Assembly: GCA_026398935.1 (NCBI GenBank)
Contig: JAPLRW010000271.1
Coordinates: 1,132 to 65,131, forward strand
DNA length: 64,000 nucleotides
Direction: 5' to 3'
DNA from: Methylococcales bacterium
GTDB taxonomy: Bacteria; Pseudomonadota; Gammaproteobacteria; Methylococcales; Methylomonadaceae
Part shown: piece by piece, positions 5,347 through 16,616 of the stretch
Layout of the letters: each line of letters starts with the position of its first letter
How positions within the stretch are numbered: the stretch's first letter is position 1
Notes under the pieces: model-generated
Database searches by the model: none
What the model was told of the DNA's origin: nothing
Seen by the model: the letters and a program-made list of their open reading frames with translations, nothing else
Translations under genes and position numbers: made by a program

Positions 5347-6123
5347 ATGAGCTTGAGTGTTTTCATACCCACTTATAATTGTGGGCAGTATATTAGAGAA
5401 ACAATTGAATCTGTTTTATTGCAATCGATACCGTTGTTAAAAATTATCGTTGTAGACAATTATTCAACGGACAATACAGAAGAGATAGTGTCCAACTATA
5501 CTGAAAAAGGCGTCAGCTACATAAAACATCCCGTCAATATTGGAGGGATACCTAATCACAATTTTTGTTTAGATATGGCGGATACAGAATATCTAAAGTT
5601 ATTATCTGCTGACGATGTTTTATTGCCTGGAATTCTGGCGCTACAGCTAAACGCTTTAAAGAATAATCCAGAGTGTGGTATTGCAACGTGTAATTATCTC
5701 ATTACTGACTCAACTTTACACGTTACAGCCCATTCAAAAATTTTACAAGGCAAGGTCAAAGGAGCACATGTTATTAAAACGTGTGCTACTAAAGTAAAAA
5801 ATCTTATTGGCGGCCCTTCAATGGCAATGCTGCGCCGTGACGCTATTGGAGAAAGACGATTTAATTCCAATTTTAAATGGACTAGCGACTTGTTATTTTT
5901 TTGCGACATTTTACAACACTCAACCTTAATAAACGTTGGTGTTAATGGTGTATTGTATAGACGACATAATCAAACTGATTCTGATTTAATGTGTATAAAA
6001 TCTATTCGGCTTCATGATGAAATGTACTTTGTAAATAACTTCTCGAAAAGAAAAGTCGAACCTTATTTAAGATTGTTAAAAAGATATGGATTTGACTATA
6101 TTTCCAAAATTACTGAACCTTAA
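5347..6123 (+). CDS. family 2 glycosyltransferase
   Basis: N-terminus LSVFIPTYNCGQYIRETIESVLLQ..VVDNYSTDNT and a later SADD(V) DxD-like motif are classic GT2 (GT-A) signatures. The gene is AT-rich. Confidence 0.8.
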   Translation: MSLSVFIPTYNCGQYIRETIESVLLQSIPLLKIIVVDNYSTDNTEEIVSNYTEKGVSYIKHPVNIGGIPNHNFCLDMADTEYLKLLSADDVLLPGILALQLNALKNNPECGIATCNYLITDSTLHVTAHSKILQGKVKGAHVIKTCATKVKNLIGGPSMAMLRRDAIGERRFNSNFKWTSDLLFFCDILQHSTLINVGVNGVLYRRHNQTDSDLMCIKSIRLHDEMYFVNNFSKRKVEPYLRLLKRYGFDYISKITEP

Positions 6124-6156
6124 TTCATAAAATTTATTTTTAAAGCGTATTAGACA

Positions 6157-7029
6157 ATGGCCCATTCAACATCAAATAAAGCTGATATTATAGTTAGCCT
6201 AATAATGGCTACTTATCATAGGAAAGAAGAGGTGGCCTGTTTTATTAAAAGCCTAGTCGTTCAAGATTTTGATATTAAAAAAATAGAATTAATTATTGTT
6301 GACCAAAATAGTGATGGATTGCTTGATATTATCGTAGCAGAGTATCAGTCACAATTAAAAATCATACACATTAAATCTACAACGCTTGGACTCAGCCTTA
6401 ATAGAAATATTGGTATAAAAAGCGCTAAAGGTAGTATTCTTTGCTTTCCAGACGATGATTGTACGTATTATCCGAATACATTAGCAGAGGTTCATAGATT
6501 ATTTTTAGAAAATGATCGAGTGACTACTCTTCTAGGTCAGATTATTGATGTTAATGGTCATAAAATCATTAGAAAATGGCCTGACAATACTGTGAAATTA
6601 TCAAGCATGAATTTCTTTACTTTATATTCTTCAATTACTGTTTTTACAAAATGCAAGAACACTTATTTTGATGTTCGCCTAGGGATTGGTAATAAATTTG
6701 GTTCTTATGAAGACGCTGATTATATTTTGTCACTGCTGAGAGAAAATCCCGGCGCAATGTATTATTATCCCAATATAAAAGTGTCTCATCCCCCCTTGAA
6801 TATTAAAACCATGTCGCCTGAGAAAGTAGTGAACTATGGCCTCGGTTTTGGTGCATTTTGTAAAAAAAATATATCCTTTTATATTTTTACATTATACCTA
6901 AAAGTAATAATATATCATGTGCTTATGATGCTGCTGGCTGTTTTAAAAATGGATTCAGTAGAATTAAAAAAGCGCTATTTGTCTACCACATCAAGGATAA
7001 AAGGTTTCTTAGTTTTTCAAGATGATTGA
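6157..7029 (+). CDS. family 2 glycosyltransferase
   Basis: IVSLIMATYHRKEEV..IIVDQNSDG and FPDDDC (DxD) match the GT2 fold pattern. A hydrophobic C-terminal helix is present. The gene is AT-rich. Confidence 0.75.
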   Translation: MAHSTSNKADIIVSLIMATYHRKEEVACFIKSLVVQDFDIKKIELIIVDQNSDGLLDIIVAEYQSQLKIIHIKSTTLGLSLNRNIGIKSAKGSILCFPDDDCTYYPNTLAEVHRLFLENDRVTTLLGQIIDVNGHKIIRKWPDNTVKLSSMNFFTLYSSITVFTKCKNTYFDVRLGIGNKFGSYEDADYILSLLRENPGAMYYYPNIKVSHPPLNIKTMSPEKVVNYGLGFGAFCKKNISFYIFTLYLKVIIYHVLMMLLAVLKMDSVELKKRYLSTTSRIKGFLVFQDD

Positions 7030-7075
7030 TATAGATAGCATCTGTTATGCACACCTATGAAATGTAAGCCAACTG

Positions 7076-8011
7076 ATGGTTATTTATAATACAGCCTCTA
7101 TTATGCCGCGTCCTTCCATCAATGTTTTTATTCCAACATATAATGCCGAACTGTTTATTGCTACACTGCTGACTAGCATTAAAAGCAGCCCTTATAACGT
7201 TTATATTTTAGTCATTGATTCCTCTTCCTCTGATGATACTGTCAATATTGTTCGGCAATACGCTGCCGAAATCATCGTTATTCCACAATCTGATTTTAAT
7301 CATGGTGCAACAAGGGAGTTTGCACGAAAAAAATACCCGCATGATATTACCGTTTTTTTAACCCAAGATGCGCTGCCAACTTCAACTGATTTAATTGAAA
7401 AATTGGTTGCACCATTGATAGCCGATAAAACCATTGCAGTCAGCTATGGTCGCCAAATTCCGCAGGATAACGCGGATATATTTGAAGCGTTCCCACGTGA
7501 GTATAATTATGGCGTAGAGGCTCAAGTACGTAGCATCGGTGACGTTAATCAATTTGGTGTATATACTTTTTTTTGTTCCAACAGTTGTGCTGCTTATAGA
7601 AACTCAGCGCTTGATGAAGTGGGTGGTTTTAAACGTGTATTAACCAATGAAGATTATTTCGCGGTTGCTGATTTGCTACAGAAGGGCTACAAAATTGCTT
7701 ATGTTCCCGATGCCGTTGTTATACATTCTCACCGCTATACCTTATGGCAGGAGTTTCAACGCTATTTTGATACGGGGTATGTTAGAGCGGAATATCCGAT
7801 TATTCAACAATTAGTCGGGCAGGCAGAGAAAAGAGGTATGGGATTTGTAACGGCTTTAATTAAAAAGCTATGGATAGAACGGCCAAGATTAATCCCTTAT
7901 GCAATAGGTCAATCTCTTATAAAGTGGTTAGGGTATAGGGTAGGTTTTTATGGCAAAAAGTTACCTTTATGGCTAAAAAAGCAATTAAGTCAGCAACATT
8001 ATTATTGGTAA
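7076..8011 (+). CDS. family 2 glycosyltransferase (rhamnosyltransferase-like)
   Basis: INVFIPTYNAELFI..VIDSSSSDDT and FLTQDALP motifs. The more likely start is the Met at 7103 (MPRPSINVF..). Confidence 0.75.
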   Translation: MVIYNTASIMPRPSINVFIPTYNAELFIATLLTSIKSSPYNVYILVIDSSSSDDTVNIVRQYAAEIIVIPQSDFNHGATREFARKKYPHDITVFLTQDALPTSTDLIEKLVAPLIADKTIAVSYGRQIPQDNADIFEAFPREYNYGVEAQVRSIGDVNQFGVYTFFCSNSCAAYRNSALDEVGGFKRVLTNEDYFAVADLLQKGYKIAYVPDAVVIHSHRYTLWQEFQRYFDTGYVRAEYPIIQQLVGQAEKRGMGFVTALIKKLWIERPRLIPYAIGQSLIKWLGYRVGFYGKKLPLWLKKQLSQQHYYW

Positions 8012-13213: not shown

Positions 13214-13690
13214 ATGTTGAAATGGTTGTGGTTGTCAGTATTGGTGCTGATTTTAGATCAGGCCAGTAAATTAGTGGTGGCAGAGGTGATGCAGCTGTAT
13301 CAATCCATCCCCTTGCTGCCAATGTTTAATTTACTGTATGTACACAATAACGGTGCGGCGTTCAGTTTTCTAAGCGAAGCGGGCGGCTGGCAGCGCTGGT
13401 TTTTTGCCGCAATGGCCTTGATCATTAGCGTGGTACTGACGGTTTGGTTAAGCCGCTTGCAAAAAACTGAGACACTATTAGCAGCCGCCTTGTCACTGGT
13501 GTTAGGTGGAGCAATCGGCAACCTGTATGATCGCTTGGCGTACGGCTATGTTATTGACTTTTTGGATGTGTATTATCAAAACTGGCATTGGCCAGCGTTT
13601 AATATCGCCGATTCAGCCATTACACTAGGGGTTGCGCTGCTGTTACTGGAATCGTTTGGGGTGGGTAAGAAAACGGCATCGAGTGAGTAG
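13214..13690 (+). CDS. lspA: lipoprotein signal peptidase (signal peptidase II)
   Basis: MLKWLWLSVLVLILDQASK.., NNGAAFSFL and FNIADSAI motifs. It occupies the conserved position after ileS. The ORF is open from 13181, but ATG 13214 fits the family N-terminus. Confidence 0.93.
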   Translation: MLKWLWLSVLVLILDQASKLVVAEVMQLYQSIPLLPMFNLLYVHNNGAAFSFLSEAGGWQRWFFAAMALIISVVLTVWLSRLQKTETLLAAALSLVLGGAIGNLYDRLAYGYVIDFLDVYYQNWHWPAFNIADSAITLGVALLLLESFGVGKKTASSE

Positions 13691-13825
13691 TCAGGCGCTG
13701 TAATGCGCAGAGCATAGAAGCGCATTCTCGCTGACGCTTAATAATCGCTAAAAAATATTGAAAAATAACCTTTCTGGCAACCTCAATAATGCAATCCTTT
13801 ATAAGGACGAAGAATTTTATAAAGT

Positions 13826-15127
13826 ATGAAATTAAAATTAGAAAATATAGGCATGATACGCCACGCGGATATTAAACTAGATGGATTGACTGTTATCGCT
13901 GGAGAAAACGATACGGGTAAAAGCACTGTAGGAAAACTCATATTTTCTTTAATTAAAGCCTTTAACCGTTATGAGCAGGATTTGAATGAAAGCAAGTCAG
14001 ATAGAGTTTTTGAATTAATTGAAAAAATTTATTTTCAACTGCGTAAAGAGTATGATTTTAAAGAGAATATGGAAATTAGAGATGCGTTTTTTCCACCTGT
14101 TTTTTTGAGGGAGTTTAAAAAAGCTGACGACCCGATCGCCCTAATTGATCATAAAATCATTCTCTTAAGAAAAATTGACGCAGTTAATGTTATTGCTGAT
14201 CTCGAATTAATAAAAAAAATATACTCAGAAGATGAAGATAAAGAGTCAAGTATTAAAAGAGCATTAGCCAAGGCTTTTGTTTCTGAATTTTATTTTGAAT
14301 TAACTCCAAAAAACTCTACTTTAGCCTCTCATATTAATCTTTCGGAAGGGCCAAATAAGATATTCGATATCGCTATAAAAGACAATAAAATTGACGATCT
14401 GAAGCTATATGACGACTTAACTTTTAATGACGTTACTCTTATTGAAACGCCTATTTTTTTGCAAATGTATGATTTAATCCGTTCTGCGTCGACTCTATTT
14501 GAAATGGAAGACAGTCGTGAGCGATCATTAAAATCTAGTCGACCAAATCCAAAGGTGGCATTACATGTAAAAGACTTAATTTCAAAACTAGAAAATGCAC
14601 AATATTTTTCTTTTCAACAAAAGCGTTTATTTGAAGATAATTTGGACAGCTTATTAGCTGATATTACTAAAATAACAAAAGGATCAGGATTTACCTTTGA
14701 AAAGAAAGATAGAGACTTCTACTTTAATAAAAACGGGAACACGAATTTCAAATCCATTAATACGGCAACCGGTTTAAAAGCATTTGGTATTATTCAATTG
14801 TTGATTCAGGCAAGTATTCTTAATGAAAGAAGTTTGCTTATTATTGACGAGCCAGAAATTCATCTACATCCGAAGTGGCAAGTAGAATATGCCAAATTAA
14901 TAGTAACTTTAGTGAAAAATAATATTCCAGTTTTATTGACTTCACATAGTCCAGAAATAATACAAGCATTAAGTACTTTCAGTGAAGAATTTGGAGTGCA
15001 AAATAGAACTACTTATTATCTTACAGAGAGTGATGGCGTAGTTTCTGACATAAATGATGTTAGCGAAGATATTAATAAGATATTCATTAAACTAGCCGAA
15101 CCATTACATAATTTGGTTTGGGATTAA
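13826..15127 (+). CDS. ABC/SMC-like AAA ATPase (AAA_15/AAA_21-type), candidate defence-system sensor/motor
   Basis: 433 aa. Walker A GENDTGKST (res 26-34) is followed by a long charged helical insertion, then NTATGLKAFG, Walker B LLIIDEPEIHLHP and LLTSHSPE. Sampled 60-nt lines are about 30% G+C, against about 45% in the flanking core genes. Confidence 0.8.
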   Translation: MKLKLENIGMIRHADIKLDGLTVIAGENDTGKSTVGKLIFSLIKAFNRYEQDLNESKSDRVFELIEKIYFQLRKEYDFKENMEIRDAFFPPVFLREFKKADDPIALIDHKIILLRKIDAVNVIADLELIKKIYSEDEDKESSIKRALAKAFVSEFYFELTPKNSTLASHINLSEGPNKIFDIAIKDNKIDDLKLYDDLTFNDVTLIETPIFLQMYDLIRSASTLFEMEDSRERSLKSSRPNPKVALHVKDLISKLENAQYFSFQQKRLFEDNLDSLLADITKITKGSGFTFEKKDRDFYFNKNGNTNFKSINTATGLKAFGIIQLLIQASILNERSLLIIDEPEIHLHPKWQVEYAKLIVTLVKNNIPVLLTSHSPEIIQALSTFSEEFGVQNRTTYYLTESDGVVSDINDVSEDINKIFIKLAEPLHNLVWD

Positions 15128-15132
15128 CAGGC

Positions 15133-15777
15133 ATGCTTGAAAGACTAATAGAATTTGGAATTAATGGGCATTTTTTTTATTTTATGCCAATAGGTCAATT
15201 AGAAAAGAGTTGTTGTTCTAACTCAAAATTAGAGGTTATTGATTTTGACAAAACCAAAGAAATACTGTCCAACATAACAAAATTACAACAACCAAAATCG
15301 GCTGACGCACTAAAAATATTACCTTTGTTGGATCGTATAGACTTCATAGAATTAAAGGGATTTAAAAAATTCATTCAGTACAACCAAGATAAACCAGATA
15401 TTGACAAAGAAATAAGCTATCAAGTTGAAAAGTTTGGTTTGACTGAAAAAATAAGAGATAGTTTATTTGTTTTGACCTTACTGACAAAACTGAAAGAATT
15501 TGAATGTAAAAAATCAGAACGCGAACAATATCAAAAAGCTACAAAAAACTATATTATAGTCGTTGATATTGATTTATATCAAAATCCTATAAAAGATAGA
15601 TTGATTACTTTGGCCTTTTTGAGTGAAGCTACCATCAATATAAAAAGCAGAATCTTAGATGAATTAAGTCAATCGGTTGATCGCATATTGATTTCTAGCC
15701 TAGAAAATCTTCAAAAGCCTATGATTATTAGTTGCAAAAATATAGATAGCTACTATCAAAAGCTTTTAAAAAAATAA
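15133..15777 (+). CDS. uncharacterised 214-aa partner protein of the AAA ATPase (possible nuclease-type effector)
   Basis: The ATG lies 5 nt after the ATPase stop, and the ORF is open from TTG 15118. Composition is equally AT-rich. I recognise no family. Acidic/Lys motifs are present: D58..D70-F-I-E73-L-K75 and VVD145-I-D147. Confidence 0.6.
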   Translation: MLERLIEFGINGHFFYFMPIGQLEKSCCSNSKLEVIDFDKTKEILSNITKLQQPKSADALKILPLLDRIDFIELKGFKKFIQYNQDKPDIDKEISYQVEKFGLTEKIRDSLFVLTLLTKLKEFECKKSEREQYQKATKNYIIVVDIDLYQNPIKDRLITLAFLSEATINIKSRILDELSQSVDRILISSLENLQKPMIISCKNIDSYYQKLLKK

Positions 15778-15878
15778 TAGAGGTTGTTGAGTTCAGGATA
15801 GATACACGGTTAAAGTTCAAACCCATTTCATCTGTCTGTCGTTCTCGCGCTTTAACTTAAGAACAATGCAACGAGGAC

Positions 15879-16616
15879 TTACCGTCTAACCGCCCGCATC
15901 ACTTGTTTCAAATCCTTTACGGTCTGTGCTAAGCCGGAAAACAGTGCTTGAGCAATGATTGAATGCCCGATATTCAGCTCAACAAGCTCAGGAATCTGAC
16001 AAATGGCTTCAACATTGTAGAAGTTTAAACCATGCCCTGCGTTGACCTGTAAACCACATTGCTTAGCGTAGTGTGCGGCGTGTTGAATGCGTTGCAGCTC
16101 TACTTGTTGTTGCGCGCGACCACTGGCATCGGCATAAGCGCCGGTATGTAATTCAATAACGGGCGCGCCCGCTTTAAGCGCCGCATCAATTTGTGCGGCT
16201 TCAGGATCAATAAACAACGACACTTCGATCCCGCCATCCCCTAAGCGTTGGCAAGCACCACGCACTGCAGTAAAGTTAGCGACAACATCCAGTCCGCCTT
16301 CGGTGGTTAATTCCGCTCTTTTTTCTGGAACCAAACAACAGGCAAATGGCTGTACTTGCAAGGCAATACGCAGCATCTCTTCGGTGACGCCCATTTCTAA
16401 GTTCAAGCGCGTTTGTAGCACCTCTTTTAAACGTAAAATATCGCTATCCTGAATATGCCGACGGTCTTCCCGTAAATGTGCGGTAATGCCATCAGCGCCG
16501 GCTTGTTCTGCCACCAGCGCAGCTTGTACAGGATCAGGGTAAATCGTTCCGCGCGCCTGCCGAACGGTGGCGATATGATCAATATTAACGCCCAGTAAAA
16601 TAAGATTTTTCTGCAT
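15879..16616 (-). CDS. pdxJ: pyridoxine 5'-phosphate synthase
   Basis: [32 protein letters not shown] matches the PdxJ signature. It sits in the conserved recO-pdxJ position. Confidence 0.95.

Follow-up and report, generated by a model that had tools for sequence, protein, structure and literature searches.

The locus and its two genes

The stretch of DNA analysed here (the window; 64,000 nucleotides (nt), positions 1,132 to 65,131 of contig JAPLRW010000271.1 of the Methylococcales bacterium assembly GCA_026398935.1) harbours two adjacent genes on the forward strand, of which the first, open reading frame 1 (ORF1; 13826-15127, 433 codons), encodes an ATP-binding cassette (ABC) ATPase, while the second, ORF2 (15133-15777, 214 codons, stop codon at 15775-15777), encodes the small protein which is the main subject of this work. 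Considering its conserved residues, its predicted topology and its remote relatives, ORF2 is considered likely to be a PD-(D/E)xK-type nuclease which depends on metal, predicted to act as the effector of a two-gene module with ORF1. Only 5 nt separate the ORF1 stop from the ORF2 start. The latter was set to the ATG at 15133 and not to the in-frame TTG at 15118, as homologues open with 'MLxRL'; starting at the TTG would make ORF2 five codons longer and have it overlap the ORF1 stop. In the 5 nt intergenic gap no strong Shine-Dalgarno sequence was seen, which suggests that translation of the two genes is coupled.

A preceding reading of the same DNA, made from its letters alone and referred to here as the original prediction, had proposed that ORF2 carries two alternative sets of nuclease-like motifs, namely D58 with E73-x-K75 as in PD-(D/E)xK nucleases or E73 with D145-x-D147 as in TOPRIM domains. 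Checking of the coordinates placed the ORF and every numbered residue where they had been reported (residues are numbered from the Met at 15133):

15304-15306, + strand: D58 of ORF2
15331-15333, + strand: D67 of ORF2
15340-15342, + strand: D70 of ORF2
15349-15351, + strand: E73 of ORF2
15355-15357, + strand: K75 of ORF2
15565-15567, + strand: D145 of ORF2
15571-15573, + strand: D147 of ORF2

Conservation of the ORF2 motif residues

Taken as patterns alone, neither motif set exceeds chance in a protein as rich in Lys, Asp and Glu as ORF2: D-x(10-20)-[DE]-x-K was present in 89% and E-x(40-70)-D-x-D in 51% of composition-preserving ORF2 shuffles. The original prediction had itself cautioned that short motifs of this sort arise by chance. 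What separates the PD-(D/E)xK from the TOPRIM reading is conservation, as this differs between the two sets. The ORF2 family was found to comprise 55 relatives by a word-indexed search and 435 clusters at 50% identity by a profile search, nearly all of them stand-alone proteins of about 200-230 amino acids, and all conservation counts refer to an alignment of 115 diverse representatives with 24-52% identity to ORF2. Among the 214 positions only four columns were invariant, i.e., S56, D58, E73 and K75, whereby D58 and E73 are spaced by 15 residues. Near-invariant were D39 (99%), K106 (99%), S110 (98%), D145 (96%) and D37 (95%), and D109 was conserved in 84% of the representatives. The D58/E73/K75 triad is hence the conserved core of the family.

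Of the remaining residues listed in the original prediction, which had proposed an alignment of homologues as a check, D67, D70 and D147 did not share this conservation. The D147 column holds Asp in 44 representatives (38%), Glu in 20 (17%), Asn in 12, a gap in 11 and Ser in 10; D67 is Asp in 8 of the 115 (7%) and D70 in 87 of them. D145 is replaced by Arg or Asn in the plasmid- and phage-borne relatives, with Arg being found in both plasmid versions (L012 and L013). D145-x-D147 is thus not a motif, and E73 is the Glu of the ExK motif.

Predicted fold of ORF2

An AlphaFold2 model of ORF2, computed from a 45-sequence alignment, reached a predicted local distance difference test (pLDDT) score of 89 and a predicted template modelling (pTM) score of 0.85. 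The topology was read from the secondary structure of this model only. In order, the model shows strand 34-37, helix 38-49, strand 59-63, a four-residue turn and strand 68-75, followed by four helices, strand 137-144, additional helices, the short strand 197-200 and one last helix. The conserved residues are distributed over these elements as follows:

15232-15357, + strand: catalytic core, residues 34-75 (conservation, AlphaFold2 secondary structure, hhalign to the WonB family)
15241-15249, + strand: D37-F-D39, closing strand 34-37 and followed by helix 38-49 (AlphaFold2, conservation)
15298-15306, + strand: S56-x-D58, opening strand 59-63 (AlphaFold2, conservation)
15349-15357, + strand: E73-x-K75 on the hairpin partner strand 68-75 (AlphaFold2, conservation)
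15364-15537, + strand: helical insertion (residues 78-135) which follows the ExK strand, with helices 78-84, 90-100, 103-119 and 127-135 (AlphaFold2)
15448-15462, + strand: K106-I-x-D109-S110 on helix 103-119 of the insertion (conservation, AlphaFold2)
15541-15573, + strand: strand 137-144, followed by D145-I-D147 (AlphaFold2)

In the canonical PD-(D/E)xK fold an Asp opens one strand and the ExK motif resides on its hairpin partner strand (Steczkiewicz et al. 2012, as cited in PMC12137116). In TOPRIM domains the Glu closes the first strand of a sheet which is parallel and Rossmann-like. Strands 59-63 and 68-75 of ORF2 are joined by a turn of four residues and therefore form an antiparallel hairpin which carries E73. 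As modelled, the topology of ORF2 is the PD-(D/E)xK arrangement, one strand of the hairpin beginning at D58 and the other bearing ExK.

The weak matches which the model returned in Foldseek searches were recurrently to proteins of the restriction endonuclease (REase) fold, among them MUS81, XPF, Zip2, FAAP24, CdiA-CT, Cas4, VRR-NUC and MmcB as well as arenavirus and bunyavirus endonucleases and T7 endonuclease I-like proteins, and neither the PDB nor the BFVD list held a primase, a topoisomerase, an OLD protein or any other TOPRIM protein. A Pfam scan of the 115 members was led by Tox-REase-9 and NERD, heading five families which matched two members each; matches were sub-threshold (Tox-REase-9 0.001, NERD 0.0026, HSDR_N_2 0.059), whereby the Tox-REase-9 match of one member (P0052) falls on the ExK strand and a weak HSDR_N_2 match of the phage-borne relative covers the motif region. 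Tox-REase-9 and NERD are PD-(D/E)xK families, and HSDR_N_2 is the nuclease domain of type I restriction enzymes.

Remote profile similarity to WonB and to plasmid- and phage-borne proteins

The closest point of reference for ORF2 among characterised effectors is WonB. WonAB, encoded by the WASA-1 prophage of Vibrio cholerae, combines an OLD-type ABC ATPase with the 16 kDa protein WonB, described as a 'variant of the PD-(D/E)xK fold' (PMC12137116), and is equivalent, according to the same report, to an operon from Krishnan et al. 2020 termed 'OLD-ABC ATPase + novel REase'. Exchange of the ExK lysine (K71A) was reported to abolish both defence and toxicity; WonB was found to be non-toxic without WonA, its toxicity requiring the ATPase activity of WonA, and upon WonAB action genomic DNA stayed intact while translation stopped, suggesting rRNA or tRNA as target (PMC12137116). 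In PADLOC the system corresponds to the candidate PDC-M29, with WonB being labelled 'novel REase' (PDC-M29B).

For profile comparison WonB/'novel REase' sequences were taken from the supplementary tables of PMC12137116, of which 9 and subsequently 30 were used. Alignment of the ORF2 family by hhalign yielded a probability of 70% (P 4e-5) with the 9 sequences and of 45% (P 2e-4) with the 30 sequences, and in both runs D39/D58/E73/K75 came to lie in register with the catalytic D43/D54/E68/K70 of the WonB family. Three distant partner proteins, identified solely via their ATPase, share the D / SxD / ExK layout of ORF2. The plasmid- and phage-borne partners aligned with the ORF2 family at a probability of 96.6% (P 7e-10) and with the WonB family at 56% (P 1e-4), as compared to 0.5% for an unrelated control, i.e., an ATPase alignment. 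Based on these profile alignments, homology of ORF2 and WonB is probable.

When used as tblastn query, ORF2 itself yielded a single match among the plasmids of the collection searched and none among the phages. Distant ATPase-nuclease pairs are carried as cargo by the Klebsiella pneumoniae plasmid pMB6975_2 (5.9 kb, MOBP; L012, 3001-4966) and by an Acinetobacter plasmid (L013, 3001-5032); both pairs adjoin RelE/ParE toxin-antitoxin genes and their two genes overlap by about 10 nt. A further pair, composed of a 453-amino-acid ATPase and a 192-amino-acid partner with the motif NFDK...KSID...FVEFK, resides on an unverified human-gut phage contig (L014, MT835532.1, 2950-4876).

Next to the motif residues the family shows a recurrent set of cysteines. 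Four columns (ORF2 residues 27, 28, 57 and 201; window positions 15211-15216, 15301-15303 and 15733-15735) are each Cys in 71-76% of the representatives and jointly so in 47 of the 115; ORF2 itself possesses three of them, with Ala at position 57. An invariant Cys immediately before the catalytic Asp is found in the WonB family, too. The four cysteines could form a zinc or iron-sulfur site, as in nucleases of the Cas4/AddB type, or disulfides.

The ABC ATPase partner ORF1

ORF1 was identified as an ABC ATPase of the PtuA/OLD type, and the motifs expected for such an enzyme are in place:

13826-15127, + strand: ORF1, 433-amino-acid ABC ATPase, PtuA/OLD (AAA_15/AAA_21) type (Pfam, PADLOC, AlphaFold2/Foldseek)
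13901-13927, + strand: Walker A, GENDTGKST (sequence motif)
14759-14782, + strand: signature-like NTATGLKA (sequence motif)
14834-14857, + strand: Walker B, LLIIDEPE (sequence motif)
14939-14953, + strand: H-loop, TSHSP (sequence motif)

In Pfam, ORF1 matched AAA_15 (2.7e-15) and AAA_21 (3.3e-13), and no nuclease domain was found in it by this search. Among the PADLOC models the best matches were PD-T4-4_A (3e-28) and HEC-02A (4.8e-27), followed by PDC-M47A and NsnB, all of which are partial. The AriA models of PADLOC were matched at 4e-16 and ranked below six ATPase models which belong to four other systems. The NCBIfam PtuA model scored 43 bits on ORF1 against a cut-off of 500. The AlphaFold2 model of ORF1 (pLDDT 86) was found to be nearest to PtuA (template modelling score ~0.4) and retron PtuA in the PDB, then to Rad50/SMC heads, at E ~1e-8. 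Finally, ORF1 matched phrog_14430 at 1e-68, and this strong match fits the occurrence of the phage-borne pair described above. ORF1 is presumed to be the sensor or regulator of the pair.

Among the ORF1 homologues, a subset from Bacteroidota (P0408, P0426 and similar proteins; 606-612 amino acids) is extended at the N-terminus by about 170 residues, and at locus L038 such an extended homologue is still directly followed by an ORF2 homologue.

Linkage, distribution and mobility of the pair

In 28 of the 28 GTDB loci with upstream DNA the two genes were found adjacent and on the same strand, and likewise in the loci from metagenomes, plasmids and phage; the aligned region of the ORF1 homologue is separated by 8-25 nt from that of the downstream ORF2 homologue. 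The identities of the ORF1 and ORF2 homologues correlate (r = 0.89). The contexts of the pair are unrelated, ranging from ftsB-ispD and purE-glyQ to the neighbourhood of a Type ISP restriction enzyme, plasmids and a phage contig, from which it follows that the two genes travel together. The nearest relatives derive from Methylococcaceae and from Beggiatoaceae (giant sulfur bacteria), more distant ones from Bacteroidota, Campylobacterota and the Bacillota genera Paenibacillus and Bacillus.

On one metagenomic contig (L006, 854-6666) a distance of about 0.7 kb separates the pair from a Type ISP restriction-modification enzyme of 1033 amino acids, this being the sole clear defence-gene neighbour among the loci with inspected gene calls. 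In one genome of Candidatus Thiomargarita nelsonii two contigs (L041 and L042) gave matches which cover ORF2 residues 1-70 only; one of these matches leaves about 80 nt up to the end of its examined stretch and the other begins 42 nt into its own. Truncation or interruption of the copies could account for this, as could breaks in the assembly.

Genomic surroundings

Within the window, ORF1 and ORF2 occupy an islet of low GC (guanine plus cytosine) content:

13691-15878, strand not applicable: low-GC islet containing ORF1 and ORF2 only, between the end of lspA at 13690 and the stop of the convergent pdxJ at 15879

The GC content amounts to 31% for ORF1, 28% for ORF2 and about 30% for the islet, as compared to 48-49% for ileS and pdxJ, 44-49% for the surrounding DNA and 47% for the housekeeping DNA in which the islet lies. 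The islet is surrounded by the housekeeping genes ileS, lspA, pdxJ (15879-16616), recO, era, rnc, lepB and lepA. No notable direct or inverted repeats flank it to mark a mechanism of insertion, no Rfam family was found within the 64-kb window, and no retron reverse transcriptase or non-coding RNA was seen beside the pair. A promoter scan of the locus gave background level, and the terminator-like sites included no clear operon terminator.

A second low-GC stretch (window ~5347-8011; 34.5% GC over 6-8 kb) contains three ORFs which by eye resemble family-2 glycosyltransferases, and upstream of these lie ORFs that by eye resemble an O-antigen ligase, a sugar transferase and a flippase. Such genes would make the region a cluster for surface polysaccharide, with no relation to the ORF1-ORF2 pair.

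Proposed function and mechanism

The reading of ORF2 as a PD-(D/E)xK nuclease is based on the invariant triad, the hairpin topology, the alignment with WonB and the weak matches to REase-fold proteins. Evidence for placing the pair in the class of defence modules comes from the best matches of ORF1, which are PtuA structures and the ATPases of validated ATPase-plus-nuclease systems, from the linkage and mobility of the pair, and from the precedent of WonAB and HEC-02, both of which defend against phage with an architecture of this type. A nuclease activity of ORF2, a complex of ORF1 and ORF2 and a role in defence would follow by analogy with these systems.

Several results weigh against this reading. 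Searches of Pfam, PADLOC, NCBIfam and PHROGs and of the PDB sequences gave no match at threshold, be it with the single ORF2 sequence or with two family profiles. Structure prediction with a subsequent Foldseek search, a check put forward by the original prediction, did provide a confident model with the PD-(D/E)xK hairpin but no significant structural match, the best E values being 0.13 in the PDB and 0.036 among the predicted viral structures of BFVD. As a consequence of this lack of a structural match, the basis of the fold call is formed by the motifs, the topology and the remote links between profiles. The WonB links among the latter are of moderate probability, support coming only from hhalign and from the targeted comparison, and searching the ORF2 hidden Markov model against the WonB family and the plasmid- and phage-borne partners at a database-wide Z gave a best E of 0.21, which is not significant. 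D145 is conserved within the subfamily and has no assigned role. Finally, most loci lie outside recognisable defence islands.

The mechanism suggested for the pair is modelled by analogy on WonAB, HEC-02, PD-T4-4, Septu and PARIS. Here, D58 and E73 of ORF2 would bind the metal and K75 would serve as catalytic lysine, while one more acidic ligand would be contributed by D39, together with D37, out of the strand and helix that come before. ORF2 would thus be a Mg- or Mn-dependent nuclease which is held in check by a dimer or oligomer of the ORF1 ATPase. It is suggested that ORF1 senses a phage-derived cue through its variable inserts, whereupon binding or hydrolysis of ATP by ORF1 would license the ORF2 nuclease. 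Finally, ORF2 may cut host or phage nucleic acid, leading to abortive infection. By analogy, RNA (tRNA or rRNA) is a serious candidate for the substrate, because WonB causes translation arrest while DNA stays intact and because tRNA is reported as target of PARIS and tRNA-Tyr as target of the retron-Eco7 PtuAB; the fold would equally allow for DNA.

Alternative readings

Among the alternatives, the one that survives best accepts ORF2 as a REase-fold nuclease and assumes the module to serve addiction or stabilisation of its carrier, in a toxin-antitoxin-like manner, or competition between mobile elements. This was considered unlikely. It would agree with the relatives found on the 5.9 kb mobilisable Klebsiella plasmid and on the Acinetobacter plasmid beside RelE/ParE genes, with the chromosomal loci, most of which hold the pair alone among housekeeping genes and in no defence island, and with the Pfam label of AAA_21, which reads 'putative AbiEii toxin'. 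However, a simple toxin-antitoxin function is opposed by WonB, which is non-toxic without WonA and needs the WonA ATPase for toxicity (PMC12137116). Furthermore, the ATPases closest to ORF1 (PD-T4-4 and HEC-02) come from selection or tests for phage defence, one relative adjoins a Type ISP restriction enzyme, and defence systems are themselves frequent on plasmids and prophages.

Less probable still, by about half, is the assumption that ORF2 has a nuclease fold by descent but is catalytically inert and serves as adaptor or binds DNA, with the real activity residing in ORF1. The missing threshold match to a nuclease family, the missing significant structure match and the large helical part of the AlphaFold2 model would be in line with such a role; yet the residues which never vary are precisely the acidic/Lys triad and S56, and inactivated nuclease folds usually lose these first. 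In addition, ORF1 lacks a nuclease domain and the equivalent Lys is essential in WonB (PMC12137116).

The weakest alternative, a TOPRIM-like ORF2 (E73 with D145-x-D147) in a PARIS-like AriA/AriB pair, retains hardly any credibility and was rejected on conservation and topology, as, despite the high conservation of E73 and D145, each placed at a strand's C-terminal end or close to it, and despite the match of ORF1 to the AriA models, D147 is Asp in 38% and Glu in 17% of the representatives and missing or non-acidic in all others, D145 is itself Arg or Asn in plasmid and phage relatives, E73 precedes the invariant K75 in an antiparallel hairpin and not on the first strand of a parallel sheet, ORF2 matched no Toprim, DUF4435, OLD or AriB model at E<=1 when compared with Pfam, PADLOC and NCBIfam, no TOPRIM protein was among the Foldseek matches, and ORF1 is far closer to PD-T4-4_A and HEC-02A than to AriA. 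Of the two folds offered by the original prediction, PD-(D/E)xK is thus the one upheld by triad, hairpin and WonB alignment, while the TOPRIM branch falls because the listed D-x-D is unconserved, an outcome which that prediction had named beforehand as refuting; with it goes the proposal of a PARIS-like system.

Comparison with known systems

Among the immune modules of bacteria, pairs of an ABC ATPase and a nuclease form one of the largest classes. The ORF1-ORF2 pair resembles WonAB in that the ABC ATPase gene comes first and the small PD-(D/E)xK-type gene directly after it, in that both pairs are found on mobile DNA and in the layout of the core, which in both effectors follows the order strand-D, (S/C)-x-D or C-D, hairpin and hydrophobic-E-x-K-G ('VIDFDGC...ACDFVV...YVELKG' in WonB-type proteins as compared to 'VIDFDKT...SADALKI...DFIELKG' in ORF2). 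In contrast to WonB-type proteins of ~140-170 amino acids, ORF2 comprises 214 amino acids, making it about 70 residues longer, and possesses a helix between the first two motifs as well as the helical insertion of ~58 residues after ExK, the latter being missing from WonB. Where ORF2 shows K106/D109/S110 and D145, WonB shows A-x-x-Q and a conserved Pro. Distinct are also the matches to the PDC-M29B model, which range from 1.5e-65 to 3.8e-6 for WonB-type proteins, whereas ORF2 and six relatives gave none. WonA and ORF1 share only generic similarity of the ABC core, with 26% identity over 177 amino acids, and the signature strings of the ORF2 family were not found in the examined part of the homologue tables of PMC12137116.

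HEC-02, an ABC ATPase paired with a NERD-type protein, was validated in phage defence with both genes being required (bioRxiv 10.1101/2024.01.29.577857). Its architecture equals that of ORF1-ORF2; ORF1 matches HEC-02A (over parts of the profile only), two members of the ORF2 family show weak NERD matches and one (P0037) a weak HEC-02B match (E 0.03), whereas ORF2 itself matches neither HEC-02B nor NERD. The nuclease of PD-T4-4 from E. coli was classed as PD-(D/E)xK (bioRxiv 10.1101/2025.07.10.664194), and PD-T4-4_A is the top PADLOC match of ORF1, its best stretch covering residues 240-384 only; in contrast, ORF2 does not match PD-T4-4_B. With Septu and the retron PtuAB the pair shares the combination of ATPase and small nuclease partner, PtuA being nearest to the ORF1 model, but PtuB is an HNH nuclease, and ORF2 shows neither an HNH motif nor an HNH match. 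PARIS, too, is made up of an ABC ATPase as sensor and a separate nuclease effector; its AriB, however, is of the TOPRIM/DUF4435 type and finds no counterpart in ORF2, and ORF1 matches AriA more weakly than it matches the ATPases paired with PD-(D/E)xK nucleases. The pair should consequently not be classed as PARIS-like, and as judged by the available models it fails membership of WonAB/PDC-M29, HEC-02, PD-T4-4, PARIS and Septu alike.

The odds that the pair constitutes a distinct anti-phage or abortive-infection system, with an effector from a new REase-fold clade and a trigger or substrate, such as one particular tRNA or rRNA, unlike those of WonAB, HEC-02 and PD-T4-4, fall somewhat short of even. 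This idea is based on the 435 clusters of the family, its own helical insertion, D37/D39, S56, K106/S110 and D145 and the often present four cysteines. The kind of system, i.e., an ABC ATPase with a REase-fold nuclease, is already known from WonAB, HEC-02 and PD-T4-4, and the gain is therefore incremental rather than conceptual. What is new is the putative nuclease family of ORF2, sizeable and unannotated, which has neither name nor model in Pfam, PADLOC (version 2.0.0), NCBIfam or PHROGs and hence is missed by these resources, and which would be a reasonable candidate for inclusion in catalogues of defence systems.

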